This document shows, in pieces, positions 3,301 to 38,023 of a DNA stretch of 64,000 nt. The stretch lies in NCBI GenBank assembly GCA_963717315.1, contig CAVQWA010000009.1, positions 720 through 64,719 of the forward strand, in the 5' to 3' direction. The translations under genes and the position numbers were made by a program. Source of the DNA: an uncultured Gemmatimonadales bacterium. Its GTDB lineage: Bacteria; Gemmatimonadota; Gemmatimonadetes; Gemmatimonadales; GWC2-71-9. The stretch's first letter is position 1, and each line of letters starts with the position of its first letter. Below the pieces are notes generated by a model. It did not search any database. It was not told the DNA's origin and was given only the letters and a program-made list of their open reading frames with translations.

Positions 3301-4785
3301 GTGAGCGCGCTCGACCTCACGGTCATCGCCACCTACGCCGCGGTGGTGGTGGCCATCGGGATCTGGGCCAGCCGGCGACAGCGCTCCGCCGGTGACTACT
3401 TCCTCGGCGCGCGTGACCTGCCGGCGTTCGCGGTGCTGCTCTCCATCGTGGCGACGGAGACCAGCGCCCTCACGGTCATCTCGGTCCCCGGCATCGGCGC
3501 GCGGGGCGACCTGACCTTCCTGCAGCTCACCTTCGGCTACCTGCTGGGTCGGATCGCCGTCGCGCGCTGGCTCCTGCCGGGGTACTTCGCCGGCGAGCAG
3601 GAGACCGCCTACGCCCGGCTGGAGACGCGCTTCGGCCGGCCGACCCGCCGACTGGTCTCCGCGCTCTTCCTGGTCACCCGCTTCCTGGGCGACGGGGTCC
3701 GGGTCTTCGCCGGGGCGATTCCGCTCGCCCTCGTGACCGGCTGGGACATCCGCGCCGCGATCGTCGTGATGGGGCTCGTGACCCTGCTGTACACCTGGTT
3801 CGGAGGGCTCCGCGCGGTGGTCTGGACCGACGTGCTCCAGCTGGTGGTCTACGTGGCCGGCGGCGTCGCGGCCCTCGTGATCGCGAGCGAGATGGCGGGC
3901 GGCCTGCCCGCGGTGCTCGCGCGGGCCGGGGAGGCGGGGAAGCTCCGGGTCATCGACCCCACGCCTTCGCTCACGCTGCCGTACACCCTCCTGGCCGGCG
4001 TCGTGGGTGGCGCGCTCCTCTCGGCCGCGTCCCACGGCACCGACCACCTCATCGTGCAGCGGCTCCTCGCCACCCACTCGCTCCGGGACGCGCGGACCGC
4101 GCTCGTCGGCTCGGGGGTGGCGGTGATCCTCCAGTTCGCCCTCTTCCTCCTGGTGGGCACCGCGCTCTGGGCCGCCGGACAGGCCCCCGAGGGCGTGCCG
4201 GGGGACGAGGTCTTCCCGCGCTTCATCGTCGCGCACCTGCCCGCCGGCCTCGCCGGACTGGTGGTGGCGGGCATCCTCGCGGCCGCGATGAGCACGCTCA
4301 GCTCGTCGATCAACGCGCTGGGCAGCTCGGTGACCCACGACTGGTACGCGACCACGCCCGAACGCCGGGACCCGGCCCGGCTTCTGCGGGTCGGGCGGCT
4401 CATCTCGGCGGCGTGGGGGGGGCTGCTCATCCTCGCGGCGCTCGGGTTCCACGCCTGGGGCGCGCGGGACACGCCGGTGGTGGTGCTGGCGCTCTCCATC
4501 GCCTCGGTGACCTACGGGGCGCTGCTCGGCGCCTACGTGCTCGCGGCCCGCTTCCCCAGGGTGGAGGGGCCGGACGTCACGGCCGCGACGGCGATCACGC
4601 TCGCCGTGATGCTCGTGGTGGTGCTCGCCGGACGGCTGGCCGAGTGGCCCGGCCTGGGCTGGCTCGCGGCGGCGGGCCGGCTCGCCTGGCCGTGGTACGT
4701 GCCGCTGGGCACCTTCCTCACGGTCGCAGTCGGCGCCGGTCTCGGCGCCCGCCGCCGCCCACACCGGGCAGGAGGAGACCGATGA
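3301..4785 (+). CDS. Sodium:solute symporter (SSS) family transporter
   Basis: About 13 hydrophobic segments. N-terminal SSS signature ...GDYFLGARDLPAFAVLLSIVATETSALTVISVPG. Confidence 0.85.
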   Translation: MSALDLTVIATYAAVVVAIGIWASRRQRSAGDYFLGARDLPAFAVLLSIVATETSALTVISVPGIGARGDLTFLQLTFGYLLGRIAVARWLLPGYFAGEQETAYARLETRFGRPTRRLVSALFLVTRFLGDGVRVFAGAIPLALVTGWDIRAAIVVMGLVTLLYTWFGGLRAVVWTDVLQLVVYVAGGVAALVIASEMAGGLPAVLARAGEAGKLRVIDPTPSLTLPYTLLAGVVGGALLSAASHGTDHLIVQRLLATHSLRDARTALVGSGVAVILQFALFLLVGTALWAAGQAPEGVPGDEVFPRFIVAHLPAGLAGLVVAGILAAAMSTLSSSINALGSSVTHDWYATTPERRDPARLLRVGRLISAAWGGLLILAALGFHAWGARDTPVVVLALSIASVTYGALLGAYVLAARFPRVEGPDVTAATAITLAVMLVVVLAGRLAEWPGLGWLAAAGRLAWPWYVPLGTFLTVAVGAGLGARRRPHRAGGDR

Positions 4786-22208: not shown

Positions 22209-22990
22209 CGGGCACCCGCCCGGCTGCGCGCCAGCGCGGTCATCCAGCCGAGGCCCATCCGCAGGCCCCAACCCCGCGAGTCACCGCCCACCCGGTAGCG
22301 GACGCCCGCGTCCGCCACGAGGCGCGGGGTGAGCTGGCGCCGGCCACCGACGCCCACGTCCCAATCGAGCGCCGCGCCGTCCGCGAAGGCTTCGCCCACC
22401 AGGAGCTCGGCCCCGAGGAGGGTGGCTGCGAGCGGAAGCGCCCGGTCCACCGCCAGGCCAGCCCGCCACCGGTGCTGGTCGGCGTGGGCGGCGGCGGAGG
22501 GCCCGAAGGTCCCCGAGGCATTCAGGTGCACGCGGCTCCGGCCGAAGGTGCGGGTGAGGATGGCCCCCAGGGCCGTGAAGGCGGCGTCGGGCGCCTCCGA
22601 GCCGACGGGGAGGAGCACTTCGGCCTCGAGCGCGAGCGCCGGGATGCCGCGGGTCTCGACGTTGAGGGCGTGCATCACGCCCAGTTCGACGCCGGCCAGG
22701 CCGCCGCGCGAGTCGGGACCGTCCGACCAGGTCCAGGGGAGCCCGAGCTCGAATTCGGTCCGGGGCAGGAGCCCCGCCGTCACTGACGGCGCCAGGGTCC
22801 AGCCGTAGGCCCCACCCTCCCGCCGGGTCACGTCGAGCGGCGAGAACTGGAACTCCAGCGCCTTCCGCTCGAGCGCGCGGGCGTCGGTGACGTCGAACGG
22901 GTGCCCCCGGTCGAGGTTGTACCAGTCCTTCTGCGCGGCGGCGGGCACGGCCGTGGCCGCGAGGAGCACCACCGGGAGCAGCGCCCTCAT
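22205..22990 (-). CDS. Outer-membrane beta-barrel-like protein (MetA-pathway / transporter-type OMP)
   Basis: Signal peptide [20 protein letters not shown], alternating amphipathic beta-strand pattern, Gly/aromatic-rich. Start overlaps the csoR stop (ATGA). Confidence 0.55.
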   Translation of the reverse strand: MRALLPVVLLAATAVPAAAQKDWYNLDRGHPFDVTDARALERKALEFQFSPLDVTRREGGAYGWTLAPSVTAGLLPRTEFELGLPWTWSDGPDSRGGLAGVELGVMHALNVETRGIPALALEAEVLLPVGSEAPDAAFTALGAILTRTFGRSRVHLNASGTFGPSAAAHADQHRWRAGLAVDRALPLAATLLGAELLVGEAFADGAALDWDVGVGGRRQLTPRLVADAGVRYRVGGDSRGWGLRMGLGWMTALARSRAGAR

Positions 22991-23334
22991 CGCACGTGCT
23001 TGAACATCAGGTCCACCACCTCGTCGTACATCTGCCTCGCCTCGTCCCCGCCCTGCCGGATGGCGTGGCTGGCGCAGTGCTCGAGGTGGTTCTTCATCAG
23101 CGAGCGGGAGACGCCGCGCAGCGCCTCCTGCACCGAGGTGAGCTGCACCAGGATGTCGGCGCAGTAACGCTCCTCCTCGACCATCTTCTGGAGCCCGCGC
23201 ACCTGGCCCTCGATCCGGCGGAGCCGGTGCAGGTTCTTCTGCTTGAGCTCGGGGTCCACGCCGACCGCCTTCCGCCCGTCCGGCCCCACTTCGTGCGAGG
23301 CGCCGCAGCCGCAGGTGATCGTCTCGTCGCTCAT
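22987..23334 (-). CDS. csoR: CsoR/RcnR-family metal-sensing transcriptional repressor
   Basis: DUF156 core [38 protein letters not shown]...HLEHC, which carries the C-H-C ligand pattern. Has a Cys-rich N-terminal extension CGCGASH. Confidence 0.9.
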
Positions 23335-25653
23335 CGCGTCCCTCCCTCGAAGCCCCGGAGCCTGAGGCTGTTGCTGACCACGCTGACCGAGCTGAACGCC
23401 ATCGCGGCGGAGGCGAGAATGGGGCTCAGCAGCAGGCCGAACGCCGGGTAGAGCACCCCCGCCGCCACGGGGATGCCGATCATGTTGTAGATGAGGGCCC
23501 AGAACAGGTTCTGGCGCATCGTCCCCATCGTGCGGCGTGAGAGCCCGAGCGCATCGGCGAGCGCGTGCAGGTCGTCGCGGAGCAGGGTGATGTCGGCGGC
23601 ATCCGCCGCCACGTCAGCGCCGGCGCCCATCGCCACGCCCACGTCGGCCTGGGCGAGCGCCGGCGCGTCGTTCACGCCGTCGCCCACCATCGCCACCACG
23701 CGGCCCTCGGCCTGGGCCCGCTTCACGTAGTCCACCTTGCCCTTCGGGCAGTACCTCGGACTCGACCGCGTCGATCCCCGCCTCGCGGGCGATCGCCGCG
23801 GCCGCGCCCCGGCGGTCGCCGGTGAGCATCGCCACCCGGAGGCCGAGCCGGTGGAGCCGCTCCACCGCAGCTCGGCTGGTCGGCTTGAGCCGGTCGGCGA
23901 GTGCGATGGCCCCGCGGGCCTTCCCGTCCACCGCCACCAGCACCGGCGTGGCGCCCGCCGCGGCAAACCGCTCGGCGGCCTCGAGCGCGCCGCCCGGCGC
24001 CACGCCCTCCGATTCGAGCAGCTTCGCGGTGCCCACCAGCACCCGCCGGCCGGCCACATCCCCCACCGCCCCGAAGCCGGCCCGCGCCTCGAAGCGCTCC
24101 GGTTCCGGCAGGTCCAGTCCGCGCTCCCCGGCCCAGGCGACGATGGCTCGGGCGAGCGGATGCTCCGAGCCGCGCTCGAGCCCCGCGGCAAGCCGTGCGG
24201 CCTCGTCATCGAGCTCGGCACCCGTCACCCGCGGCTTCCCCTCGGTGAGGGTGCCGGTCTTGTCGAGCACCACCGTATCCACGTCGGCCGCGCGCTGCAG
24301 CGGCTCGCCGCCCTTGATCAGGACCCCCAGCTCCGCGCCCCGGCCGGTGGCGACCATCACCGCCGTCGGCACCGCCAGGCCCATCGCACAGGGACAGGCG
24401 ATGATGAGCACCGCCACCGCGGCCGTGAGGGCGCGCACCGGGTCGTCGCCGATGATGGTCCAGGCCACGAAGGTGGCGACCGCGATCGAAACCACGGCCG
24501 GGACGAACACCGCCGAGATCCGGTCGGCCAGCCCCTGGATCGGCGCGCGCGATCCCTGCGCCTCGCGCATAAGCGCCACGATCCGGCCCAGCGCGCTGTC
24601 GGCGCCGAGGGCCGTGGCGCGGATCCGGATCGCGCCAGACTGATTGAGCGTGCCCGTGCTCACCCGGCTTCCCGGCGCCTTGTCCACCGGGATGCTCTCG
24701 CCGGTGAGCACCGACTCGTCCACCGCGCTCGTGCCCGAGAGCACCTCGCCGTCCACCGGCATCCGCTCGCCGGGCCGGACGAGGATCGTGTCGCCCCGCC
24801 GGACCTGGGGGAGCGGCACGGCCACCTCGCGGCCGTCGCGCACCACGGTGGCCTCGAGCGGCTGCAGCGCCGCCAGCCCGCGGAGCGCCTCGGCGGTGCG
24901 CCGCTTGGCCCGTGCCTCGAAGGCGTTCCCGAGGAGCACCAGCGCCACGATGATGATCACCGCCTCGTAATACACGTCCGGCGCCACGCCCCGGGCCGCG
25001 AACCACCCCGGCGCCAGCGTCACGGCGGCGGAGAAGAGGAACGCGGCGCCGGTGCCCACCGCCACGAGCGTGTCCATCGTGGCGGAGTGGTGCCGGAATG
25101 CGGCCCAGGCGTTGACGTAGAAATGGCGGCCGGCCCAGACCATTACCACCAGCGTGAGGGCGAGCAGCGTCCAGCGGAGGGCGCCGTGGGGAACGGCGTA
25201 GAGCCAGGGGATGGCGCCCCGGAGCGAGGGCTCGAGCGTCTGCATCACCCAGTTCATCACCGGGTCGGTGGAGCCGTGCGGCCCCGCGCCCATCAGGGGC
25301 ATCGAGAGCAGCATCGCCACCGCGCCGATGGCGAGGCTCACCAGGGAGCGGAACCGGAGCCGGTGGTACTCCTCCTCGCGCGAGCGATCCTGCGCCTCCT
25401 GCTCGTCGAAGGCGCTGCGCTCGGCGGAGGGGAGCTCGGCCTCGTACCCGGCGCTCCGGACCGTCTCCACCAGGGCCTCGGGGGAGACGGCCGCGGGGTC
25501 GAAGGCGACCGTCGCCTGCTCGGTCATCAGGTTCACGTTGGCGTCGCGGACGCCGGGGGCCTGCTGGAGCGCCTGCTGGACCCGGGCCTGGCAGGAGGCG
25601 CAGTGCATCCCGGTGACGGGGAAGGTGATCCGCTCCTCGGTGTGCGTGGTCAT
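23331..25653 (-). pseudogene. copA: Copper-translocating P1B-type ATPase CopA, reading frame broken by a single-base insertion
   Basis: HMA domain [11 protein letters not shown] motif ([11 protein letters not shown]) and DKTGTLT lie in the frame of ORF 23614..25653. [16 protein letters not shown] and the last TM helices lie in the frame of ORF 23331..24221. The switch is at ...EVLPEG|KVDYVK, where the coding strand reads GAAGGGCAAG instead of GAAGGCAAG (plus-strand CCC 23740-23742). Confidence 0.75.
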
Positions 25654-25659
25654 CGTGGG

Positions 25660-26040
25660 CTACTCGGCGATGAGCCGCCCGCGGAGCATGTTCATGCCGC
25701 AGGTGAACTCGTAGGTGCCGGGCGCGGCCGGCGTGATCTCGATGGGGGTGCGCGCGAACGGCTCGAGGAACTTCCGCACGCCGAAGTCGGGGAACACCAC
25801 TTCCTCCGAGCAGCTCGCGTCCTCCTGGCGGTCGAAGACCAGCCGGACCGGCTGGCCGGCGCGGACCCGGATGGAGCCGGGGTCGTACCCGCCGCGGACG
25901 GCGACGACGATCTCCTGGAGGCCGCCCGCCGGGGCGGCCGCGGCCGCCACCGGGGTGCGCCCGGCGCGGAAGAACCACCAGTAGACGAAGGTGATGGCGG
26001 TGAACCCGCCGAAGAGGACCAGCCAGTCGGTGCCGTTCAT
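25660..26040 (-). CDS. Membrane-anchored cupredoxin-like domain protein (Cupredoxin_1 type), first gene of the copper operon
   Basis: N-terminal TM helix WLVLFGGFTAITFVYWWFF, then a cupredoxin-like fold ending EFTCGMNMLRG. Confidence 0.7.
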   Translation of the reverse strand: MNGTDWLVLFGGFTAITFVYWWFFRAGRTPVAAAAAPAGGLQEIVVAVRGGYDPGSIRVRAGQPVRLVFDRQEDASCSEEVVFPDFGVRKFLEPFARTPIEITPAAPGTYEFTCGMNMLRGRLIAE

Positions 26041-26090
26041 ACGACCCCCAGGGATGCCTGAGGGCCGAATCTATATACCCCCTCCCCCTA

Positions 26091-26124
26091 TGTCAAGCTC
26101 CGGGATCGAACGCGAGACCTCCTG
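26091..26124 (-). other. Decayed tRNA 3'-half-like fragment (anticodon-stem 3' strand, variable loop, T-arm)
   Basis: The minus strand reads CAGGAGGTCTCGCGTTCGATCCCGGAGCTTGACA. It matches 25 of 34 positions of the same part of tRNA-Ala at 35100-35133, including CAGGAGGTC and TTCGATCCCGG. The T-stem no longer pairs and no 5' half is present. Confidence 0.55.
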
Positions 26125-29008
26125 CTACGGGCTTCGAGCGGCGATGTCCCGCACCTCGGACGCCTGCCACAGCCCGTTGGGAGTCGGGACAGGAGGTAGC
26201 GGGCCAGTACTTGGTCTCGGCGACGGTACCCAAGGCGGTTGCCGGCCGCAGGTGAATCGTGCACTGCCCAGAGGGCTCCTCGATCACCGATGTCGCGACA
26301 ATCCTCCCTTCATCGCCGTGGAACGGGCCACCGAGCCGGACGCCCGGGACCAGGACATCCTGGTGCGGCCCGGTGATGGTCAGGGTGGAGTCCGCGTTCA
26401 CCGCCACCCGAAACTCGAGCAGGCGAGAACTCCACGGTCCGTTCGGAGCCCCGAGCCGCTCGAGCGCGACCAGCCGCGACCCGTCGGGGGAGAGGTCCCA
26501 CGCCGGCGTGGAGATCGGGGTGAACCGGGTGGACGCACCGGTCCGCAGGTCGAAGAGCAGCCCGTGGTAGAAGAGGTACCGCCCCTGGGGATGCAGGTGG
26601 ACGTCATCCGGCCAGACGTACGCCGCCCCGCCGGTCGAATCGGTCAGCAACACGGAGGAGAGCAGGCCCCCGGTGGCCTGGGAGTAGAGGTCAATGAAGT
26701 AGGCCGTGAGGGTCGGGCGCTGCAGGACGAAGACGTCGTCTCCGTCGAACCGCGCGGACTGGTTGTTCCAGGTCCGGAGCCGGGCCCCGAGCGGGTCAAA
26801 CGTCGCAACGGAATGATCGCGACCATTCAGTGAATCCTCGTTCAGGTGGACCGAAAGCTGCCGCCCCCCAGGCGCCACGGAGATCCTGGCCGGGTACCAC
26901 TGGGCGTGGGCAATAGGGGTGGTCCGCACGATCTCGAAATCCCGCAGCACGGAGAACGACACCGGGGGATTGGCGAGCACCTGCTGCCCGCAGAGGGGGT
27001 TGTCGCCCCGGTCCTGGGAAAGGAGCTGGAGGGCGCCGTAGGCATCAAGCTGGTACACCGGTTCCGGGAAACCCTGCACCGGCGTGCGGGGCACGAGCAG
27101 CCCCGTCACCGAGTCCCGGATCGCGACCCGGCTCCCGCGCTCCAGGTAGTCCACCAGCTGGGCCGGTGAGAGTGACGGGTCCCGCGCCAGGAGCAGGGCC
27201 GCGGTCCCGGCGACCAACGGCGCTGCGAACGATGTGCCATTCCCAAAGGCGAGCGTCCCTGTGGTCGTGGCGGCCCATACCCCCTTGGCAGGAGCCGCAA
27301 GGCCCGTATGGCCCAGGTAGAATCCCGAACCCACATTGCCATCGTCCCAGGCCACGTTGCCGGGCGACGTGCCCGCAACAAACAGGATGCGGTCGGCGTA
27401 TCCCGCGGCGCGAAGCTCCAGCAGAGCGCGATCCATGGCCGCACTGCGGATCGGCTGCGCCCGCAGGTTCGCCAGGCTCCGATTGAGCCGCTCATTGCCA
27501 GTTGTCTGAACCCAAAGCAAACCCGGGACGCTATCGAACAGTCTTGCGAGGCCCGCACGGAGGTATTCCACCGCGACCGTATCGTTGCTAAGACCGATCC
27601 CGATCGTGCTTACGACCACCCGGGGGGACTCGCCGGCCAATCGCGGGAGAATCCCGTTCACCAGTGCCGTCCCTGCCGTCCCGGTCTCGACATAGTTGCG
27701 GGCGCCGATGCCGAGTGCGCGCAACCGACCTCCCCAAACCATGCCGGCAATGCCCAGCATATTGTCTGCCCGGGAGCCCGCCAACGAAGCCACGGCCGCG
27801 GCATGGCCCACCCAGAAGAGTGAGTCGGCAGAGAGGCCGATCGTCCGTTGCTGGCTCGATACTTCCTGCCCCCCAGGCGGGAAGGGGACCCTTGCCGCAG
27901 AGTAATCCACCAGGTCCGGCGGGACGGCACTCGTGGGCACCTCGGCTTCGAGCAAGTGGATCGCGGGCGGAGCAGAACCTGGATACTGGCCGTTCTCGCA
28001 CGCCCAAGCCTGCGGCGCACGGATCGCAGAGGGCGCCCAGAGTTCGGCGACGCCGTCGATCCAGGCCTGCCTCGTGAAGCCACCATCAGAGGGGAATCTC
28101 CCGTCCACCCTTCCCACCCCACCGCGACGCGTCATCGGACCTGCGACCCGCACAATGGGTTCACCATGGAGTGAATCGAGGAGGGCTTTGACGTCCGTCC
28201 AAGTGGGCCCCGGATCGGGGAACCTGAGGATGAAGAGGCGGGCGAACGAACTCCCACCGGCGAGGCTCGCACCGTACTTCTCCAGCAGTGCGCGGAAGGC
28301 AGTTCCGTCCGCCTCCGGCCGGAGCCAGATGCCGATCATCCGCCGGTAGTAGTCGTAACCCGGCGCAAGCGAGTCCTCGATCACAAACAGGGATTCCGCG
28401 GCGAACGTCATCTGGTCGTGGATGATGGGCAGCGCCGAATCAGGCAGCTCCGCCCGGATCTCGAACGAGATCCTGGCCGCGGTGGTCTTGTTGGGCACGA
28501 TGAGTTGCAGCGTCCGGATCGGGGTCGAGTCGCCGGGGATCGTGCCCCCATTCTCGAGGAGAGTCCAGAATGCCGCACCGGCGTCCGCCCCACCGGCTCC
28601 CCCGACGCTGTCCGCGTTCGCTTCCACCACCCGTGCCGTGACGGTGCTCGGCGCCGTGACCACCCCCGAGTCCCTCGGCAGCACCACGAGGATCGGCGCG
28701 TCCCGCCCGCCCGGCCCCCGGTTCACCACCCGCACGGGGATGCTCACCTTCCGCTGGTTCTTGACGTACCCCACGGCCCCCGCGCCGACCAGCGCGAGCC
28801 CGGTGGCGCAGCCCGAGTCCGCGGCGAAACTGGCCTGGGCCGTGGTCCCCCCGACGATCTGCACGTGCACCCGGGTGCACGGGCCCGCCGAGCCGACGGC
28901 GAGCATCGGCGCGGGCCGCAGGGTGTCCTGCCGCGGGCCGATGGGATCGGGCCCGGTGCAGCTCAACGACCCCAGCAGCGAAATGAATCCGACGAGGCAG
29001 GTGGTCAT
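26093..29008 (-). CDS. Subtilase (peptidase S8)-like lipoprotein, tandem copy 1: signal peptide, Ig-like region, I9-like propeptide, S8 domain, beta-propeller-like C-terminus
   Basis: GGAGGG RBS 5 nt before ATG 29008. Signal MTTCLVGFISLLGSLSC. S8 blocks VGHAAAVASLAG (His), VQTTGNER (Asn) and GTSFAAPLVAGTAALLLARDP (Ser). The C-terminal tail is one base out of frame relative to copies 2 and 3 (extra base near 26181-26185). Confidence 0.85.
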   Translation of the reverse strand: MTTCLVGFISLLGSLSCTGPDPIGPRQDTLRPAPMLAVGSAGPCTRVHVQIVGGTTAQASFAADSGCATGLALVGAGAVGYVKNQRKVSIPVRVVNRGPGGRDAPILVVLPRDSGVVTAPSTVTARVVEANADSVGGAGGADAGAAFWTLLENGGTIPGDSTPIRTLQLIVPNKTTAARISFEIRAELPDSALPIIHDQMTFAAESLFVIEDSLAPGYDYYRRMIGIWLRPEADGTAFRALLEKYGASLAGGSSFARLFILRFPDPGPTWTDVKALLDSLHGEPIVRVAGPMTRRGGVGRVDGRFPSDGGFTRQAWIDGVAELWAPSAIRAPQAWACENGQYPGSAPPAIHLLEAEVPTSAVPPDLVDYSAARVPFPPGGQEVSSQQRTIGLSADSLFWVGHAAAVASLAGSRADNMLGIAGMVWGGRLRALGIGARNYVETGTAGTALVNGILPRLAGESPRVVVSTIGIGLSNDTVAVEYLRAGLARLFDSVPGLLWVQTTGNERLNRSLANLRAQPIRSAAMDRALLELRAAGYADRILFVAGTSPGNVAWDDGNVGSGFYLGHTGLAAPAKGVWAATTTGTLAFGNGTSFAAPLVAGTAALLLARDPSLSPAQLVDYLERGSRVAIRDSVTGLLVPRTPVQGFPEPVYQLDAYGALQLLSQDRGDNPLCGQQVLANPPVSFSVLRDFEIVRTTPIAHAQWYPARISVAPGGRQLSVHLNEDSLNGRDHSVATFDPLGARLRTWNNQSARFDGDDVFVLQRPTLTAYFIDLYSQATGGLLSSVLLTDSTGGAAYVWPDDVHLHPQGRYLFYHGLLFDLRTGASTRFTPISTPAWDLSPDGSRLVALERLGAPNGPWSSRLLEFRVAVNADSTLTITGPHQDVLVPGVRLGGPFHGDEGRIVATSVIEEPSGQCTIHLRPATALGTVAETKYWPATSCPDSQRAVAGVRGAGHRRSKPVAGGLAFDPGA

Positions 29009-29047
29009 CAGCCCTCCAGTGGGGAGACGACGAGGGTGCCCGGCGTC

Positions 29048-31942
29048 CTACATGCAAGAACTCGCAGCGGCGATGTCCCGCACCTCGGACGCCTGCCACA
29101 GCCCGTTGGGACCCGGGCAGGACGTGGCGGGCCAGAACCTGGTCTCGGCCACGGTACCCAAGGCGGTTGCCGGCCGCAGGTGAATCGTGCACTGCCCAGA
29201 GGGCTCCTCGATCACCGATGTCGCGACAATCCTCCCTTCATCGCCGTGGAACGGGCCACCGAGCCGGACGCCCGGGACCAGGACATCCTGGTGCGGCCCG
29301 GTGATGGTCAGGGTGGAGTCCGCGTTCACCGCCACCCGAAACTCGAGCAGGCGAGAACTCCACGGTCCGTTCGGAGCCCCGAGCCGCTCGAGCGCGACCA
29401 GCCGCGACCCGTCGGGGGAGAGGTCCCACGCCGGCGTGGAGATCGGGGTGAACCGGGAAGACGCACCGCTCCGGAGGTCGAAGATCAAGCCGCGGTAGAA
29501 GAGGTACCGCCCCTGGGGATGCAGGTGGACCTCATCCGGCCAGACGTACGCCGCCCCGCCGGTCGAGTCGGTCAGCAGCACGGAGGAGAGCAGGCCTCCG
29601 GTGGCCTGGGAGTACAGGTCGACGAAGTAGGCCGTGAGGGTCGGGCGCTGGAGGACGAAGACGTCGTCTCCGTCGAACCGCGCGGACTGGTTGTTCCAGG
29701 TCCGGAGCCGGGCCCCGAGCGGGTCAAACGTCGCAACGGAATGATCGCGACCATTCAGTGAATCCTCGTTCAGGTGGACCGAAAGCTGCCGCCCCCCAGG
29801 CGCCACGGAGATCCTGGCCGGGTACCACTGGGCGTGGGCAATAGGGGTGGTCCGCACGATCTCGAAATCCCGCAGCACGGAGAACGACACCGGGGGATTG
29901 GCGAGCACCTGCTGGCCGCAGAGGGGGCTGTCGCCCTGGTCCTGGGAAAGGAGCTGGAGGGCGCCGTAGGCATCAAGCTGGTACACCGGTTCCGGGAAAC
30001 CCTGCACCGGCGTGCGGGGCACGAGCAGCCCCGTCACCGAGTCCCGGATCGCGACCCGGCTCCCGCGCTCCAGGTAGTCCACCAGCTGGGCCGGTGAGAG
30101 TGACGGGTCCCGCGCCAGGAGCAGGGCCGCGGTCCCGGCGACCAGGGGCACCGCGAACGAGGTGCCGTTGCCGAATGCGAGCGTACCGTTGGTGGTTGCC
30201 GCCCAAACGTCCTCAGCAGGCGCCGCGATTGTGGTGTTACCGAGGTAGAAGCCAGAGCCTAAGCTAGGGCTTGTTCCCAGCCAGGCTGTGTTCCCAGGCT
30301 CGGTCCCGGCGACGAACAGGATGCGGTCGGCGAATCCCTGCGAACGAAGCTCCAGCAGCACCCGATCCATGGCAGCACTGCGGATCGGCTGCGTCTGGAG
30401 GTCCGCCAAGCTGCGATCTTGCCGCTCGTTGCCCGTGGTCTGGATCCACAGGAGGTCTGGAGTAGCCTCGAATAGCCGGCGGAGCCCAGTGCGGAGGTAA
30501 TCCACAACCGCGCTGTCGTTGCTCCACCCGATTCCGATCGTGCTCACCAGGACCCGCGGACCCTCGGCTGCGAGCAACGGGACGATGTAATTCACCAATG
30601 CGGTTCCGGCAGTTCCCGTCTCGACATAATTCCGAGCACCGAGCCCTACTGCGCGTACTCCGCCTCCCCAGACCATGCCGGCAATCCCAACTCCGTTATC
30701 AGCCCGCGAGCCCAGCAGCGAGCTGACCGCCGCAGCGTGACCGGCCCACGCCACGGAGTCCGCCGCGATATCGATCGTTCGCTGTGCACCCGACACTTCC
30801 TGCCCGGATGGAGGGAACGGGACTCTTGCGGCGGAGTAGCTGGCGAGGTCAGCCGGGACCGATCCCGAGGCCACCTCTGCTTCAAGCTGATAGACCAGGG
30901 GAGGGGTGGACCCGGAGTACCGGCCGTTCTCGCACCCCCAAGCCAGTGGGGCGCGAATCGCGAGCGCAGCCCACAAGCCAGGCGCTCGCTGAATCCACGA
31001 CTGCCTCGTGAACCCGCCGTCCGTGGGGTAACGCCCGTCCACTCTCCCCGGTCCTCCCCGGCGCGTCATAGGATATGCGACCTTCACGATTGGCTCGGCG
31101 TGAAGCGAATCCAGGAGGGCTTTCACATCGTTCCAAGTGGGGCCGGGGTCGGGGAACCGGAGGATGTAGAGTCCCACGAAATTGCTGCCTCCTGCAAGGC
31201 TGGCGTTGTACTTCTGTGCCAGCGCACGGAAGGCATCGCCGTCAGCCCCGGGATTCAAGCGCAGGCCGATCATCCGCCGGTAGTAGTCGTAACCCGGCGC
31301 AAGCGAATCCTCGATCACAAACAGGGATTCCGCGGCGAATGTCATCTGGTCGTGGATGATGGGCAGCGCCGAATCAGGCAGCTCCGCCCGGATCTCGAAC
31401 GAGATCCTGGCCGCGGTGGTCTTGTTGGGCACGATGAGTTGCAGCGTCCGGATCGGGGTCGAGTCGCCGGGGATCGTGCCCCCATTCTCGAGGAGGGTCC
31501 AGAATGCCGCACCGGCGTCCGCCCCACCGGCTCCCCCGACGCTGTCCGCGTTCGCTTCCACCACCCGTGCCGTGACGGTGCTCGGCGCCGTGACCACCCC
31601 CGAGTCCCTCGGCAGCACCACGAGGATCGGCGCGTCCCGCCCGCCCGGCCCCCGGTTCACCACCCGCACGGGGATGCTCACCTTCCGCTGGTTCTTGACG
31701 TACCCCACGGCCCCCGCGCCGACCAGCGCGAGCCCGGTGGCGCAGCCCGAGTCCGCGGCGAAACCGGCCGTGGCCGTGGTCCCCCCGACGATCTGCACGT
31801 GCACCCGGGTGCACGGGCCCGCCGAGCCGACGGCGAGCATCGGCGCGGGCCGCAGGGTGTCCTGCCGCGGGCCGATGGGATCGGGGCCGCTGCAGCTCAA
31901 CGACCCCAGCAGCGAAATGAAGCCGACGAGACAGGTGGTCAT
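29048..31942 (-). CDS. Subtilase (peptidase S8)-like lipoprotein, tandem copy 2 (divergent propeptide and protease core)
   Basis: Same architecture as copy 1. N-terminal ~226 aa and C-terminal ~370 aa are near-identical to copy 1. The central region is clearly diverged (AGHAAAVSSLLG, IQTTGNER, GTSFAVPLVAG). Confidence 0.9.
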   Translation of the reverse strand: MTTCLVGFISLLGSLSCSGPDPIGPRQDTLRPAPMLAVGSAGPCTRVHVQIVGGTTATAGFAADSGCATGLALVGAGAVGYVKNQRKVSIPVRVVNRGPGGRDAPILVVLPRDSGVVTAPSTVTARVVEANADSVGGAGGADAGAAFWTLLENGGTIPGDSTPIRTLQLIVPNKTTAARISFEIRAELPDSALPIIHDQMTFAAESLFVIEDSLAPGYDYYRRMIGLRLNPGADGDAFRALAQKYNASLAGGSNFVGLYILRFPDPGPTWNDVKALLDSLHAEPIVKVAYPMTRRGGPGRVDGRYPTDGGFTRQSWIQRAPGLWAALAIRAPLAWGCENGRYSGSTPPLVYQLEAEVASGSVPADLASYSAARVPFPPSGQEVSGAQRTIDIAADSVAWAGHAAAVSSLLGSRADNGVGIAGMVWGGGVRAVGLGARNYVETGTAGTALVNYIVPLLAAEGPRVLVSTIGIGWSNDSAVVDYLRTGLRRLFEATPDLLWIQTTGNERQDRSLADLQTQPIRSAAMDRVLLELRSQGFADRILFVAGTEPGNTAWLGTSPSLGSGFYLGNTTIAAPAEDVWAATTNGTLAFGNGTSFAVPLVAGTAALLLARDPSLSPAQLVDYLERGSRVAIRDSVTGLLVPRTPVQGFPEPVYQLDAYGALQLLSQDQGDSPLCGQQVLANPPVSFSVLRDFEIVRTTPIAHAQWYPARISVAPGGRQLSVHLNEDSLNGRDHSVATFDPLGARLRTWNNQSARFDGDDVFVLQRPTLTAYFVDLYSQATGGLLSSVLLTDSTGGAAYVWPDEVHLHPQGRYLFYRGLIFDLRSGASSRFTPISTPAWDLSPDGSRLVALERLGAPNGPWSSRLLEFRVAVNADSTLTITGPHQDVLVPGVRLGGPFHGDEGRIVATSVIEEPSGQCTIHLRPATALGTVAETRFWPATSCPGPNGLWQASEVRDIAAASSCM

Positions 31943-31981
31943 CAGCCCTCCAGTGGGGAGACGACGAGGGTGCCCGGCGTC

Positions 31982-34872
31982 CTACATGCAAGAACTCGCA
32001 GCTGCGATGTCCCGCACCTCGGACGCCTGCCACAGCCCGTTGGGCTCGGGACACGACGCAGCGGGCCAGAACCTGGTCTCGGCCGACGGTACCCAAGGCG
32101 GTTGCCGGCCGCAGGTGAATCGTGCACTGCCCAGAGGGCTCCTCGATCACCGATGTCGCGACAATCCTCCCTTCATCGCCGTGGAACGGGCCACCGAGCC
32201 GGACGCCCGGGACCAGGACATCCTGGTGCGGCCCGGTGATGGTCAGGGTGGAGTCCGCGTTCACCGCCACCCGAAACTCGAGCAGGCGAGAACTCCACGG
32301 TCCGTTCGGAGCCCCGAGCCGCTCGAGCGCGACCAGCCGCGACCCGTCGGGGGAGAGGTCCCACGCCGGCGTGGAGATCGGGGTGAACCGGGTGGACGCA
32401 CCGGTCCGCAGGTCGAAGAGCAGCCCGTGGTAGAAGAGGTACCGCCCCTGGGGATGCAGGTGGACGTCATCCGGCCAGACGTACGCCGCCCCGCCGGTCG
32501 AATCGGTCAGCAACACGGAGGAGAGCAGGCCCCCGGTGGCCTGGGAGTAGAGGTCAATGAAGTAGGCCGTGAGGGTCGGGCGCTGCAGGACGAAGACGTC
32601 GTCTCCGTCGAACCGCGCGGACTGGTTGTTCCAGGTCCGGAGCCGGGCCCCGAGCGGGTCAAACGTCGCAACGGAATGATCGCGACCATTCAGTGAATCC
32701 TCGTTCAGGTGGACCGAAAGCTGCCGCCCCCCAGGCGCCACGGAGATCCTGGCCGGGTACCACTGGGCGTGGGCAATAGGGGTGGTCCGCACGATCTCGA
32801 AATCCCGCAGCACGGAGAACGACACCGGGGGATTGGCGAGCACCTGCTGGCCGCAGAGGGGGCTGTCGCCCTGGTCCTGGGAAAGGAGCTGGAGGGCGCC
32901 GTAGGCATCAAGCTGGTACACCGGTTCCGGGAAACCCTGCACCGGCGTGCGGGGCACGAGCAGCCCCGTCACCGAGTCCCGGATCGCGACCCGGCTCCCG
33001 CGCTCCAGGTAGTCCACCAGCTGGGCCGGTGAGAGTGACGGGTCCCGCGGCCAGGAGCAGGGCCGCGGTCCCGGCGACCAACGGCGCTGCGAACGATGTG
33101 CCATTCCCAAAGGCGAGCGTCCCTGTGGTCGTGGCGGCCCATACCCCCTTGGCAGGAGCCGCAAGGCCCGTATGGCCCAGGTAGAATCCCGAACCCACAT
33201 TGCCATCGTCCCAGGCCACGTTGCCGGGCGACGTGCCCGCAACAAACAGGATGCGGTCGGCGTATCCCGCGGCGCGAAGCTCCAGCAGAGCGCGATCCAT
33301 GGCCGCACTGCGGATCGGCTGCGCCCGCAGGTTCGCCAGGCTCCGATTGAGCCGCTCATTGCCAGTTGTCTGAACCCAAAGCAAACCCGGGACGCTATCG
33401 AACAGTCTTGCGAGGCCCGCACGGAGGTATTCCACCGCGACCGTATCGTTGCTAAGACCGATCCCGATCGTGCTTACGACCACCCGGGGGGACTCGCCGG
33501 CCAATCGCGGGAGAATCCCGTTCACCAGTGCCGTCCCTGCCGTCCCGGTCTCGACATAGTTGCGGGCGCCGATGCCGAGTGCGCGCAACCGACCTCCCCA
33601 AACCATGCCGGCAATGCCCAGCATATTGTCTGCCCGGGAGCCCGCCAACGAAGCCACGGCCGCGGCATGGCCCACCCAGAAGAGTGAGTCGGCAGAGAGG
33701 CCGATCGTCCGTTGCTGGCTCGATACTTCCTGCCCCCCAGGCGGGAAGGGGACCCTTGCCGCAGAGTAATCCACCAGGTCCGGCGGGACGGCACTCGTGG
33801 GCACCTCGGCTTCGAGCAAGTGGATCGCGGGCGGAGCAGAACCTGGATACTGGCCGTTCTCGCACGCCCAAGCCTGCGGCGCACGGATCGCAGAGGGCGC
33901 CCAGAGTTCGGCGACGCCGTCGATCCAGGCCTGCCTCGTGAAGCCACCATCAGAGGGGAATCTCCCGTCCACCCTTCCCACCCCACCGCGACGCGTCATC
34001 GGACCTGCGACCCGCACAATGGGTTCACCATGGAGTGAATCGAGGAGGGCTTTGACGTCCGTCCAAGTGGGCCCCGGATCGGGGAACCTGAGGATGAAGA
34101 GGCGGGCGAACGAACTCCCACCGGCGAGGCTCGCACCGTACTTCTCCAGCAGTGCGCGGAAGGCAGTTCCGTCCGCCTCCGGCCGGAGCCAGATGCCGAT
34201 CATCCGCCGGTAGTAGTCGTAACCCGGCGCAAGCGAATCCTCGATCACAAACAGGGATTCCGCGGCGAATGTCATCTGGTCGTGGATGATGGGCAGCGCC
34301 GAATCAGGCAGCTCCGCCCGGATCTCGAACGAGATCCTTGCCGCGGTGGTCTTGTTGGGCACGATGAGTTGCAGCGTCCGGATCGGGGTCGAGTCGCCGG
34401 GGATCGTGCCCCCATTCTCGAGGAGAGTCCAGAATGCCGCACCGGCGTCCGCCCCACCGGCTCCCCCGACGCTGTCCGCATTCGATTCCACGACGCGTGC
34501 CGTGACGGTGCTCGGCGCCGTGACGACGCCCGAGTCCCTCGGCAGCACCACGAGGATCGGCGCGTCCCGCCCACCCGGCCCCCGGTTTGCTACTCGCACG
34601 GGGATGCTCACCTTCCGCTGGTTCTTGACGTACCCCACGGCCCCCGCGCCGACCAGCGCGAGCCCGGTGGCGCAGCCCGAGTCCGCCGCGAAACTGGCCT
34701 GGGCCGTGGTCCCCCCGACGATCTGCACGTGCACCCGGGTGCACGGGCCCGCCGAGCCGACGGCGAGCATCGGCGCGGGCCGCAGGGTGTCCTGCCGCGG
34801 GCCGATGGGATCGGGGCCGCTGCAGCTCAACGACCCCAGCAGCGACATGAAGCCGACGAGGCAGGTGGTCAT
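31982..34872 (-). pseudogene. Subtilase (peptidase S8)-like lipoprotein, tandem copy 3, interrupted by two single-base insertions
   Basis: The N-terminal 2/3 is in ORF 32908..34917 and the C-terminal 1/3 in the frame of ORF 31374..33422. There is an extra G at 33049/33050 (GGTCCCGCGGCCAGG against GGTCCCGCGCCAGG in copies 1 and 2). There is an extra base at ~32085 (GGCCGACGG against GGCCACGG or GGCGACGG). With both removed, the ORF ends ...ASSCM* at 31982. Confidence 0.75.
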
Positions 34873-35099
34873 CAGCCCTCCGGTCGGGAGACGGCGAGGG
34901 TGCCCGGCGTCCGACATGCAAGAACTCGCAGTCGTGGGTGGAAGGGAGGCGCAAACTGGCTCCCGGCCACGATAGCGGATTCAGGGGGGGCACAACCCAT
35001 CAAGCGTGACAGGGTCCGAATGGCGCCCGAAGCCGTCGCGGGTGGAGGCCTTCCCCGCCGCGAGTGGCAGGGGGAGCGGTCGGAGGGGGAAATGCGGCA

Positions 35100-35172
35100 T
35101 GGAGCGTACCGGGATCGAACCGGTGACCTCCTGGTTGCAAACCAGGCGCTCTCCCAGCTGAGCTAACGCCCC
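35100..35172 (-). tRNA. tRNA-Ala (anticodon TGC)
   Basis: Minus strand GGGGCGTTAGCTCAGCTGGGAGAGCGCCTGGTTTGCAACCAGGAGGTCACCGGTTCGATCCCGGTACGCTCCA. It folds as a cloverleaf with a 7-bp acceptor stem carrying the G3:U70 Ala identity pair, anticodon loop TTTGCAA and T-loop TTCGATC. CCA is not encoded. Confidence 0.95.
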
Positions 35173-35262
35173 GCAGTCCCGAATACTCGGCCCTCCCCGC
35201 CCCCGGAGTCAACCAATCGGCGCCCGGTGGCGCCTGCACGGCGAAGCAATGACCGCGCAGGG

Positions 35263-35446
35263 TTCACCGCAGGGGCGCAGAGGACGCAGGGGACCGCCGA
35301 CTTCGTCGGCCGTGTCCGATCGGGGTTGGCGTTTGCCTCCTCTACCTCCACGAGGCAGTCGGGGTGGGGTGGAGCTCAAGAAGTTGCCAAAGTGGCGTCC
35401 GGCGGATCCGGGTAGTTCCCTGCGCCCCCGGCGCCTCTGCGGTGAA
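35263..35446. repeat. ~184-bp intergenic segment bounded by 16-nt imperfect inverted repeats
   Basis: TTCACCGCAGGGGCGC (35263-35278) against the reverse complement of GCGCCTCTGCGGTGAA (35431-35446): 15 of 16 match. Further copies of the motif are at 35475-35494 and 58660-58678. Confidence 0.45.
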
Positions 35447-35681
35447 AGCAGTTCTCCGCGGCCCTCCGCGCCCCCTCCGCGCCTCCGCGGTGAACCGCCC
35501 GGCCGGCCTAACCGGAAGACCCGCTGTTGGTTGCCCGGTCATCCCCGATCGGCTGGCTCCCCATCCCCGTTGCCCAAAACCTTGTCCGGAAGGTACCAAC
35601 CCGGTACTTTTTGCACGCTTGTGCCGCGCACCCGCCACAGGGGGGTGCGCGCCTTCGTACCCCCCGTGCAGCCGAGGTCCC

Positions 35682-36884
35682 GTGGACGCCCAGACCCTCC
35701 AGCACATCGCCCTCTTCCAGAAGTGCCGCCAGTTCACGAGGGCGCGCGAGGCCCGCGCCGCGGGCCTGTATGCCTACTTCAAGCCCATCTCCGAGTCGGA
35801 GGACACGGTCGTCACGATCGAGGGCAAGAAGCGGATCATGCTGGGGTCGAACAACTACCTCGGGCTGACCCACCACCCGAAGGTGCTCGAGGCCGCCCAG
35901 CGCGCGCTGCTGCGCTACGGCTCCGGCTGCACCGGCAGTCGCTTCCTCAACGGCACCCTCGACCTCCACCTCCAGCTGGAGAACGACCTCGCCACCTTCC
36001 TCGGGAAGGAATCGTGCCTGGTCTTCTCCACCGGATACAATGCCAACCTCGGCCTGGTCTCCGGCCTCGTCGGCCGGAACGACCTGGTGCTGCTCGACAA
36101 GCTCGACCACGCCTCGATCGTGGACGGCGCGAAGCTCTCCTACGGCGAGACCGAGCGCTTCACCCACGGCGACCTCGCCGGCCTCGAGCGGAAGCTCCAG
36201 AAGGCCCAGGGCCGCGGCGTCCTGATCATCGTCGACGGCGTCTACTCGATGGAGGGCGACATCGCCGACGTGCCCGGGCTCACCCGGCTCGCGAAGCAGT
36301 ACGGCGCCGCCTTCGCCGTGGACGACGCCCACGCCCTCGGCGTCCTCGGCCCGAACGGCGACGGGACGGCCGCGCACTTCGGGATGACCGACGAGGTGGA
36401 CATCATCGCCGGCACCTTCTCCAAGTCGCTCGCCTCGATCGGCGGATTCGTCGCGGGCACCGAGAACGTCATCGACTTCCTCAAGCACCATGCTCGGCCC
36501 CTCATCTTCACCGCCTCGCTCCCGCCGGCCAACACCGCCGGCGTCCTCGCCACGCTGCAGGTGCTGCAGGACGAGCCGGAGCGCCGCGCCCGGCTGTGGG
36601 AGAATACCCGCCAGCTGGTGGAGGGCATCCGCGCCCTCGGTTACGACACCGGCCCGACCGAGACGCCGATCGTCCCGGTCATCATCGGGCCGCTCGAGCT
36701 GACGCTGGTATTCTGGCGCAAGCTCTTCGAGGCGGGCGTCTTCACCAATCCCGTGGTGCCCCCGGCGGTGCCGGCGGTGCAGTGCCGCCTCCGCACCAGC
36801 CTGATGGCCACCCACACGGCGGAGCAGATCGACTTCTGCCTCGAGGCGTTCGGCCGGATCGGCCGCGAACTGGGCGTCATCTGA
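35682..36884 (+). CDS. spt: PLP-dependent alpha-oxoamine synthase, serine palmitoyltransferase-like
   Basis: GTG 35682 preceded by GAGG. Blocks SNNYLGLTHHPKV, DDAHALGVLG and the PLP-lysine motif GTFSKSLASIGG. About 400 aa. Its gene neighbours favour Spt over BioF or Kbl. Confidence 0.75.
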   Translation: MDAQTLQHIALFQKCRQFTRAREARAAGLYAYFKPISESEDTVVTIEGKKRIMLGSNNYLGLTHHPKVLEAAQRALLRYGSGCTGSRFLNGTLDLHLQLENDLATFLGKESCLVFSTGYNANLGLVSGLVGRNDLVLLDKLDHASIVDGAKLSYGETERFTHGDLAGLERKLQKAQGRGVLIIVDGVYSMEGDIADVPGLTRLAKQYGAAFAVDDAHALGVLGPNGDGTAAHFGMTDEVDIIAGTFSKSLASIGGFVAGTENVIDFLKHHARPLIFTASLPPANTAGVLATLQVLQDEPERRARLWENTRQLVEGIRALGYDTGPTETPIVPVIIGPLELTLVFWRKLFEAGVFTNPVVPPAVPAVQCRLRTSLMATHTAEQIDFCLEAFGRIGRELGVI

Positions 36885-38023
36885 CTCCCGCCGTCACGGT
36901 CCGGGCGGTCCGGGCCGCCGCGGACCTCTCCCGCTTCATCGCGCTTCCCTACCGTCTGCACGCGGCGGCGCCCAACTGGGTGCCGCCGCTCCGGCTGGAC
37001 ATGCGGGTCCAGCTCTCCCGCACGAAGAACCCGTTCTTCCAGCACGCGGAGGCCGAGTACTTCCTCGCCGAGCGTGAGGGGAAGGTCGTCGGGCGTGTCG
37101 CCGCGATCGACAACCGGCTGCACTACGAGACCCATCCGGACGACCGGGTGGGCTTCTTCGGCTTCTTCGAGTGCGGGGACGACCAGGCGGTGGCCGACGC
37201 GCTGCTCGGTGCCGCCGGCGACTGGGTGAGGGCGCGCGGGCTCCCGGTCCTCCGGGGGCCGGCCTCCTTCTCGGTGAACGATGACTGCGGCCTCCTGGTG
37301 GACGGCTTCGAGACCCCGAACGTCCTCATGACGCCCTGGCACCCGCCCTACTACGGGCGGCTCATCGAGCGCGCCGGGTTCGCCAAGGTGAAGGACCTCA
37401 TCCTCTACGAGGCCGGCAGCTTCGACCACTATGTCACGCCGGCGGCGCGGCTGGGGCGGGCGGAGGAGATCCTCGCGAAGCGCTACGGGGTCCGGTTCCG
37501 CCTGGTGGACCTGAAGCGCTTCAAGGAGGAAATCGACCTCATCAAGCGGCTGTACAACGCCTGCTGGGAGAAGAACTGGGGCTTCATCCCGATGACCGAC
37601 GCGGAAATCGACCATCTCGCGAAGCAGTTCCGCCCGGTGGTGATCCGCGAGATGGTGGTGATCGCCGAGACCGCCGACGGCACGCCGGTCGGCTTCGGAC
37701 TCGGCCTGCCGGACCTGAACCAGGTGCTGCGCCCGAACCGGAACGGCCGGCTCCTCCCGGGGGTCGCCCGGATCCTCTGGGGCCTCAAGCGCCGCACCAT
37801 CCGTCGTGCGCGGGTCGCGCTCCTCGGCGTGATCCCGAAGTTCCGCGGCACCGGGCTCGACGCGGTGCTCTACCACCGGGTGTGGACCGGCGCCGGCTCG
37901 CGCGGGATCTACTGGGGCGAAGGGGGCTGGACCCTGGAGGACAACGTCGGCATCCGTCACGGCCTGGAGAAGATCGGCTTCGTCGGCTACAAGACGCTCC
38001 GGATGTACGACAAGCCGCTATGA
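36881..38023 (+). CDS. GNAT-fold acyltransferase, candidate bacterial ceramide synthase (bCerS-like)
   Basis: C-terminal part of ORF 35249..38023 with conserved-looking blocks FIALPYRLHAAAPNWVPPL, FFGFFECGDD and VIPKFRGTGLD. No ATG or GTG lies near the 5' end. CTG 36881 overlaps the spt stop; the first ATG is 37001. Start uncertain. Confidence 0.6.
   Translation: MTPAVTVRAVRAAADLSRFIALPYRLHAAAPNWVPPLRLDMRVQLSRTKNPFFQHAEAEYFLAEREGKVVGRVAAIDNRLHYETHPDDRVGFFGFFECGDDQAVADALLGAAGDWVRARGLPVLRGPASFSVNDDCGLLVDGFETPNVLMTPWHPPYYGRLIERAGFAKVKDLILYEAGSFDHYVTPAARLGRAEEILAKRYGVRFRLVDLKRFKEEIDLIKRLYNACWEKNWGFIPMTDAEIDHLAKQFRPVVIREMVVIAETADGTPVGFGLGLPDLNQVLRPNRNGRLLPGVARILWGLKRRTIRRARVALLGVIPKFRGTGLDAVLYHRVWTGAGSRGIYWGEGGWTLEDNVGIRHGLEKIGFVGYKTLRMYDKPL

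Follow-up and report, generated by a model that had tools for sequence, protein, structure and literature searches.

Islands inserted at tRNA genes (tDNA islands) are flanked by direct repeats of 15-221 bp, with a mode of 20-25 bp, that start at the T-loop or the anticodon loop of the tRNA, and the smallest island found there with both an integrase and direct repeats is 3.5 kb in size (bioRxiv 10.1101/2020.11.02.365908). Cis-mobilizable elements (CIMEs) are decayed remnants of integrative and conjugative or integrative and mobilizable elements (ICEs or IMEs) that have retained the attachment sites attL and attR and lost the genes for integration and transfer; all the examples given in the review are streptococcal and none is from Gemmatimonadota (PMC5704250). 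Gemmatimonadota have few cultured species (PMC11271474), and a literature search surfaced no described tRNA-linked island in this phylum. We analyzed a 64,000-nucleotide stretch (the window) of contig CAVQWA010000009.1 (assembly GCA_963717315.1) from an uncultured soil Gemmatimonadales bacterium. The region between its tRNA-Ala(TGC) gene and a copper-resistance (cop) operon, which holds three tandem genes for peptidases of family S8, is very likely the remnant of a small integrative element that integrated at the 3' part of the tRNA gene. The insertion is an old one. The features of the region, beginning at the tRNA, are:

35100-35172, minus strand: intact tRNA-Ala(TGC), functionally attL (ARAGORN; Rfam tRNA model, 68.2 bits)
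34931-35099, minus strand: leader of the islet, non-coding, delimited by alignment of occupied and empty sites and missing from the empty ones
32000-34930, minus strand: tandem unit 3, tRNA-proximal, with S8 peptidase copy 3 (ATG at 34872)
29066-32000, minus strand: tandem unit 2, with S8 peptidase copy 2 (coding sequence 29048-31942, 964 amino acids)
26137-29066, minus strand: tandem unit 1, distal, with S8 peptidase copy 1
26125-26127, minus strand: ancestral stop codon TAG of the cargo gene, directly 5' of the relic (sequence; alignment with copies 2 and 3 and the related allele L001)
26098-26124, minus strand: the relic, a decayed attR derived from the 3' part of tRNA-Ala (pattern scan, alignments and fold test)
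26068-26097, minus strand: cop promoter with the G-tract operator CTTGACATAGGGGGAGGGGGTATA; -35 TTGACA, 17-nt spacer, -10 TAGATT (promoter scan, 10/12)

With tDNA islands this islet shares the intact tRNA at one end, the direct repeat of the tRNA 3' part at the other and an insertion exactly at the tRNA 3' end, as well as a variable presence with clean empty sites. Its codon composition may be atypical too, the GC content at third codon positions (GC3) being low in the centre and 3' part of the gene only. The repeat, typical of such islands in length and position, comprises 27 nt from just before the T-stem (34 nt with the CAGGAGGTC of the window), and in a second bracketed member of the protease family, on contig L152, it comprises 46 nt from the anticodon arm. 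The islet differs from tDNA islands in carrying neither an integrase nor any other element gene, in the truncation and mutation of the window attR, and in its size, as the ancestral islet of ~3.2 kb with one cargo gene falls just below 3.5 kb.

The likeness to CIMEs lies in an att-flanked segment at a tRNA 3' end without genes for integration or transfer. The L001-type allele keeps an intact 27-nt repeat, and by this perfect repeat it may qualify as a CIME. In contrast, the window attR has lost the acceptor strand and carries three T-stem substitutions, so the window allele does not have the functional attL and attR of a CIME; moreover, no related ICE or IME is known for the lineage, and no accretion with an incoming element was seen. 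Taken together, the comparisons support an integrase-less, CIME-like tRNA islet remnant that was amplified in tandem later, that is, a known kind of scar. For this one Gemmatimonadota scar, the occupied, empty, intact-attR and decayed-attR states were all recovered from public data.

The tRNA gene, its distal copy and the empty sites

The tRNA-Ala(TGC) gene is the only tRNA gene of the window, and ARAGORN and Rfam agreed on its position, which the original prediction, made from the letters alone, had also given. The part repeated at the distal end of the insert is 35100-35133. On the minus strand, the fragment 26091-26124 reads CAGGAGGTC-TCGC-GTTCGATCCCGG-AGCTTGACA, while the last 34 nt of the tRNA read CAGGAGGTC-ACCG-GTTCGATCCCGG-TACGCTCCA. 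There are thus two exact blocks, CAGGAGGTC at 26116-26124 and GTTCGATCCCGG at 26100-26111, on either side of a 4-base gap that is TCGC in the fragment and ACCG in the tRNA. All 21 specified bases of CAGGAGGTC-N4-GTTCGATCCCGG (26100-26124) match tRNA-Ala, and the longer span matches at 25 of 34 positions, the count originally reported, which a recount by hand from both sequences reproduced. The relic consists of the 3' strand of the anticodon stem, the variable loop, a mutated 5' strand of the T-stem (TCGCG), the T-loop and the 3' strand of the T-stem (CCGGA). It has no acceptor strand, and ~90 nt of native spacer are deleted as well. The tRNA and the relic lie on the same strand in direct orientation. 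The T-stem has three substitutions and no longer pairs; no fold signal was detected for the relic (z +0.22), and the Rfam tRNA model does not recognise it.

Statistically, the fragment stands out from its background. The pattern CAGGAGGTCNNNNGTTCGATCCCGG, with up to three mismatches, had two matches in the 64 kb where 0.01 were expected from shuffled sequences, and a local (Smith-Waterman) alignment of the fragment to the 3' half of the tRNA scored 35 against a null of 11.6 ± 2.2 (p < 0.0005). The tRNA-like fragment is real and above chance.

The orthologous position was recovered in contigs L001 and L002, which come from two sequencing runs or samples (SRR14877758 and SRR14877751 for the L001 allele) and encode a protease with 91% amino acid identity to copy 2. 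The L001 orthologue ends at the same TAG as the ancestral stop of copy 1. The TAG is followed by 10 nt, by TCACCGGTTCGATCCCGGTACGCTCCA and then by AGGCGGTCGAAGGTCGAAGGTCG. The 27-mer is the exact 3' end of tRNA-Ala (27/27), acceptor strand ACGCTCCA included, and the (GGTCGAA)n heptamers belong to the spacer family that L005 and L111, two of the empty sites, have behind their tRNA. Judged by its sequence, the 27-nt copy with native spacer behind it is a textbook attR. This arrangement also shows that the relic comes from tRNA-Ala and not from another isoacceptor or a generic T-arm.

An empty site with tRNA-Ala next to the cupredoxin/copA operon, which had been suggested as a check, was sought in relatives and found in three of them, all Gemmatimonadales. 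L005 and L006, both species representatives of the Genome Taxonomy Database (GTDB), are collinear with the window at 84-88% nucleotide identity in the flanks, and the metagenome contig L111, the closest relative (92.8%), is also empty. The gene order in L005 and L006 is epimerase, aminotransferase, tRNA-Ala(TGC), cupredoxin, copA and two more genes, with the tRNA 139 or 118 nt upstream of the cupredoxin start. In all three sites the tRNA-Ala, 100% identical to that of the window, is followed by a hairpin spacer of 100-140 nt and the cupredoxin/copA promoter, with no subtilase gene. When the occupied site was compared with the empty ones, homology ended one base after the tRNA 3' end (ACGCTCCA) and returned on the distal side at the relic, where the relic and the 3' part of the tRNA of the empty sites are in register. 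Beyond the relic ~90 nt are missing (acceptor strand and spacer), and homology resumes from the cop -35, TTGACA at 26091-26096, 3 nt from the end of the relic, in keeping with the earlier statement that the fragment borders the copper-resistance operon.

Occupied and empty sites are interleaved when ordered by nucleotide identity to the occupied window: L111 (93%) is empty, L005 (87%) empty, L004 (~86%, a value that rests on a short stretch) occupied and L006 (85%) empty. A scan of species-representative genomes, with the cupredoxin next to the islet as query, yielded 80 loci, none of which had a homologue of the protease. The occupied contigs L003 and L004 encode proteases 55% identical to those of the window; they span the distance from tRNA-Ala to the cop promoter with this one gene and no other complete gene, and they share the window sequence directly after the tRNA, i.e., the left end of the islet. 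An exact-sequence search with the window cupredoxin found no other contig.

Leader, tandem units and cargo protease

The 9-kb interval between tRNA-Ala and the relic contains only the leader of 169 nt and three tandem copies of one S8-peptidase gene. The earlier claim that nothing but three subtilase genes lies between the two thus holds for the present state of the locus, but originally there was one gene, not three. Likewise, the interval is filled by the three copies and the leader without an integrase, as had been stated. The leader starts with TGCCGCATTT, and its counterpart in L003 and L004 with TTCCGCAGTT, a shared start; no promoter or terminator consensus was found in it.

The three head-to-tail units measure 2930-2935 nt each, with a product of ~960 amino acids apiece. 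Each unit starts with TGCGAGTTCTTGCATGT, also present once ahead of the first copy (34930), and ends with ...GACATCGCCGCT. At the inter-copy junction GCCGC|TGCGAG, with a 2-nt microhomology, the last codons of one copy are joined to a point ~50 nt upstream of the gene start of the next. The C-terminus AAASSCM* of copies 3 and 2 was created by this junction, and copy 1 is alone in ending as the ancestral gene did, with ...DIAARSP-TAG when read in the family frame. In copy 1 an additional C near 26175 alters the last 13 codons, and the resulting open reading frame (ORF), 26093-29008, reads past the TAG and the relic to a TGA within the cop -35. Neither the tRNA nor the relic is part of the repeated unit, so the ancestral order was tRNA, leader, one gene and relic. 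Since the junctions between the copies fall within the insert, the bracket did not arise as a side effect of the duplication. Reconstructed in this way, the ancestral islet was ~3.2 kb long, with a leader of ~220 nt, one S8 protease gene and no space left for an integrase.

Copies 1 and 3 are identical over ~2 kb and have the same central allele ('A'), while the central allele of copy 2 ('B') has 65-73% nucleotide identity to both and is nearest to the allele of L001. The array thus shows an A-B-A order with homogenised flanks, a sign of gene conversion together with diversifying pressure. Copy 3 carries two +1 indels that split it into ORFs 32908-34917 and 31374-33422, and its truncated ORF is 100% identical to a deposited protein (P0002) from a 65.6-kb metagenome-assembled contig in NCBI/ENA. 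The copA gene is also split by an indel, into ORFs 23614-25653 and 23331-24221. These single-base insertions in G/C runs (copy 3, copy 1 and copA), together with the identical stretches of ~2 kb, resemble a long-read assembly with residual indel errors. The +1 indels may therefore be assembly errors, or else mark real pseudogenes.

The cargo is a large (~960 amino acids), probably secreted serine protease of family S8, as far as domain matches and motifs tell. The match to PF00082 is weak but over the threshold (36.7 bits against a gathering score of 21.8), and the Asp/His/Ser triad and the oxyanion Asn (D365, H402, N505 and S595) do not vary among 11 sequences. The N-terminus resembles that of a signal peptide or a lipoprotein and leads into a propeptide-like beta-alpha-beta unit, behind which lies the S8 core. 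The sequence is highly divergent, and models of known families match it near the Ser motif alone; the S8 matches obtained with NCBIfam and PHROGs were all generic and scored far under the cut-offs. AlphaFold2, supplied with the 11-sequence alignment, modelled only the propeptide-like unit and the S8 core (mean predicted local distance difference test score, pLDDT, 48). The large multidomain secreted members of Peptidase S8 share PF00082, the triad with Asn and the propeptide-like unit, and the present family differs from them in that its catalytic region is the most variable part between alleles, in its tandem arrays and in its tRNA brackets.

The variability is unevenly distributed along the gene. 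The leader and the first 450 nt are 90-98% identical among all alleles, and the hypervariable part is the central 1.4 kb, catalytic region included, with 65-73% nucleotide identity between copies 1 and 2 and 43-56% between L003 and L004; the 3' thirds are 87-95% identical in the latter pair. With respect to composition, which the original prediction had proposed to check for deviation, the protease genes have the lowest GC3 of the 44 genes of the window (0.82-0.83 against 0.929 ± 0.032, z about -3.3). The deviation is, however, confined to the centre (0.76) and the 3' end (0.86), the first 600 nt being native-like (0.93), and the distance of these genes in relative synonymous codon usage is not extreme.

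A word-indexed search had returned 11 matches, suggesting an extremely rare family. This was withdrawn when an exhaustive profile search gave 657 representatives of 50%-identity clusters at E ≤ 1e-30. A defence-system cargo was also considered and rejected: PADLOC gave only a generic partial 'subtilase' match and a match of one copy to IetS (13 bits, E 0.005), and there is no IetA ATPase gene in the islet, as an IetAS system would have.

Origin of the islet

The original prediction took the bracket as the footprint of site-specific integration and the interval as a decayed or remnant island. The empty sites, the boundaries and the L001 attR support this. An element would have entered the 3' part of tRNA-Ala by site-specific recombination, leaving an intact tRNA proximally (attL) and moving the original 3' segment of the tRNA, with the spacer, to the distal end (attR). 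Later, in the lineage of the window, the attR would have decayed by three T-stem substitutions and a deletion of ~90 nt that took the acceptor strand and the hairpin spacer and brought the relic to within 3 nt of the cop -35. A unit of 2.93 kb lying wholly within the islet would then have been duplicated twice by illegitimate recombination, giving three copies, and gene conversion would have evened out the copy ends, with two very different alleles retained for the catalytic region (A-B-A). We infer the order of these later events, and likewise a tyrosine-type integrase as the agent, which was either lost from the islet or acted in trans. Since its attR is mutated and truncated, and almost certainly no longer recombinogenic, the islet of the window is almost certainly fixed in place.

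Several findings weigh against an integrated element. Neither the islet nor the remaining low-GC stretches of the window contain an integrase, excisionase or other mobility gene, no integrase-bearing version of the islet was found among relatives, and viral contigs contained neither a member of the protease family nor a matching attP. The native GC3 (0.93) of the first 600 nt means that the compositional signal may reflect fast evolution of the centre and not a foreign origin. Furthermore, the 3' untranslated regions of L003 and L004 contain no statistically detectable tRNA relic (p 0.46-0.70). Finally, the relics of the window and of L001 are perfect in different parts of the tRNA (CAGGAGGTC versus TCACCGG...CCA) and differ from each other over ~12 nt, a complementarity that calls for patchy gene conversion from the tRNA or for separate events instead of simple decay.

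Three related candidates were rejected. An integrase elsewhere in the window was sought among the low-GC ORFs, which encode ExbB/ExbD/TonB, NrfD, an acyl-CoA dehydrogenase and QueF. For a phage origin, the 3' 25-mer of tRNA-Ala matched only a tRNA array of a jumbo phage and that of tRNA-Ile matched nothing. A further-decayed relic in L003 and L004, suggested by a TCGC patch in the alignment, was dropped, as shuffling gave p values of 0.70 and 0.46 against the tRNA; the values of 0.02 and 0.14 against the window relic were inflated by the shared TTGACA.

A similar bracket exists at a different tRNA. On contig L152, a homologue with 32% identity, in DNA of 60% GC, is the sole gene between a full tRNA-Ile(GAT) (3700-3774, minus strand) and an incomplete second copy of this tRNA that points the same way. 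Direct repeats of 95 nt (2-96 and 3652-3746) match at 87% identity, and their 46-nt tRNA part is identical at 46 of 46 positions. The partial copy is scored as a tRNA by Rfam and folds as a pseudo-tRNA without a D-arm, and the hairpin that follows the tRNA is also duplicated, at ~75%. This tRNA-Ile 3' end also terminates the related contigs L085-L089. The arrangement of a tRNA, one protease gene and a tRNA 3'-half is thus present in two of about six sampled clades, at different tRNAs. This raises the question of why a protease with a conserved active site but otherwise hypervariable sequence recurs as the only gene flanked by a tRNA and a duplicate of that tRNA's 3' half, and why it is recurrently amplified in tandem.

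Tandem arrangements were also noted in other family members. L153 opens with the 3' end of an upstream copy (1-334 versus 3622-4017, a period of ~3.62 kb); one inter-copy spacer contains a T-arm-plus-acceptor-like segment, GGCGGTTCGATTCCGCCCGGCGCC (minus strand), and the other does not. L151 (4037-4258) has a second paralogue downstream. In L154, a match to the c-di-GMP-I-GGC riboswitch at 490-564 (plus strand), below the threshold (44.2 bits, E 1.6e-7; gathering score 59), is located ~180 nt upstream of a family member with 26% identity. A riboswitch in the leader was rejected for the window, where Rfam found none at the locus, leader included, the L154 match being the only, sub-threshold one.

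The most serious alternative, although rather unlikely, is that the single-gene cassette of leader, protease and tRNA 3'-half att is itself the complete mobile unit, which never had an integrase of its own and was moved in trans by that of another tRNA-targeting element, in the manner of a CIME or, loosely, of an integron cassette. Every fully covered occupied site (window, L003, L004 and L152) holds only the protease gene, the same family is bracketed at two different tRNAs in opposite orientations, the attR of L001 is still perfect over 27 nt, and presence among relatives is patchy. The unit is also compact, with its stop codon abutting the relic in the window and lying 10 nt before the repeat in L001, which leaves no space for a deleted integrase; compactness may, however, also come from reductive decay. 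No partner integrase or helper element was identified, and neither a circular junction nor a tandem accretion with another element was seen. Bracketed clades number only two of about six sampled, and with distinct att repeats at the two tRNAs, each would require an integrase of its own. Such a cassette would share with integron cassettes the single-ORF unit, the adjacent recombination site and the recombinase supplied from elsewhere, but it would differ in having its own leader, a tRNA 3' half as att, and no attC fold, attI or intI. In the window Rfam found the tRNA as its only element, a structured 3' site was looked for and not found, and there is no integrase, which sets the islet apart from integron cassettes. 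That members of this large, fast-diverging S8 family travel in general as integrase-less single-gene cassettes, with a copy of a tRNA 3' half as their sole cis-acting part and the integrase of another element inserting them in trans, and then amplify in tandem and diversify their catalytic domain is equally doubtful; if true, it would explain why one architecture recurs in Gemmatimonadales at tRNA-Ala(TGC) and in an unrelated, lower-GC lineage at tRNA-Ile(GAT).

A local duplication of the tRNA region without any mobile element, next to a native, fast-evolving protease gene that was deleted in some lineages, is improbable. It would agree with the native composition of the 5' part of the window gene and with L152, where six bases of the 5' acceptor strand persist in the partial copy, which takes the fold of a D-arm-less pseudo-tRNA, and where the repeat runs ~49 nt past the tRNA 3' end into the hairpin, unlike a minimal att core. 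However, attP regions of elements carry homology to the tRNA flanks, the identity in L001 and in the window begins inside the 3' half of the tRNA with no 5' half present, and in the empty sites, which are clean, the native spacer directly follows the tRNA. A deletion cannot produce a duplicated 27-nt segment exactly at the indel boundary. Even less probable is that the relic is retained for a function, for example in 3' processing or stability of the protease transcript or, for the cop promoter, as an upstream element, instead of being a neutral scar. Its perfect blocks of 9 and 12 nt around a mutated 4-nt patch do indicate uneven decay, and its position between stop codon and -35 would suit such a role, but it has no stable fold (z +0.22), L003 and L004 have the gene and the promoter with no detectable relic, and the empty-site relatives use the same promoter without it. 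Finally, a chance similarity or a generic T-arm-like motif in GC-rich DNA can be regarded as practically negligible. While GTTCGATCC is a widespread T-loop consensus and the window fragment has lost the T-stem pairing and goes unrecognised by the Rfam tRNA model, two matches were found against ~0.01 expected (p < 0.0005 in the alignment), the orthologous position in L001 matches 27/27 with the tRNA-Ala acceptor strand included, and the relic is in register with the empty-site tRNA.

Copper-resistance promoter and native flanks

The right-hand boundary of the insertion is the cop promoter, which belongs to the native chromosome. The flanking native genes of the window are:

22987-26040, minus strand: operon of cupredoxin (25660-26040), the P-type ATPase CopA (23331-25653, split by an indel) and a CsoR-family repressor (22987-23334), by Pfam; collinear with L005 and L006
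35364-36884, plus strand: class I/II aminotransferase, native flank, divergent from the tRNA (Pfam)

The aminotransferase has 82-93% amino acid identity to its counterparts at the equivalent position in L005, L006 and L111. A 924-amino-acid ORF at 35249-38023 (plus strand) was rejected as a gene; it is a GC-rich shadow ORF without a family match, and the true gene is the aminotransferase. The ~1 kb between the aminotransferase and the epimerase (36884-37882) has a lower GC content (~0.70) and no confident gene call.

In the empty sites, the spacer between tRNA and cop promoter forms a hairpin with near-perfect (GGTCGAA)n/(TTCGACC)n arms (L111 30-135, minus strand; L005 9824-9904), which in L111 reaches -67 kcal/mol (z -10.7). 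This hairpin presumably insulates the cop promoter from transcription of the tRNA, and as it is missing in the window, read-through from copy 1 into the cop operon is possible. The locus also illustrates the remodelling of such a scar: through a deletion, the relic and the 3' end of the cargo gene came to lie next to the -35 of a copper-resistance promoter probably under CsoR control, and the strong hairpin that stands between tRNA and promoter in empty sites was lost.

The CsoR-family repressor closes the operon in the window (PF02583, 97.7 bits). The 24-mer CTTGACATAGGGGGAGGGGGTATA of promoter and operator comprises the -35, the G-tract spacer and the first part of the -10; L003-L006, L111 and 59 metagenome contigs all share it. 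In these 59 contigs (JGI, L091-L149) it is exact, and the cupredoxin/copA operons that it precedes encode proteins with only 33-63% identity to those of the window. The 24-mer is therefore probably a deeply conserved, non-palindromic operator of CsoR.

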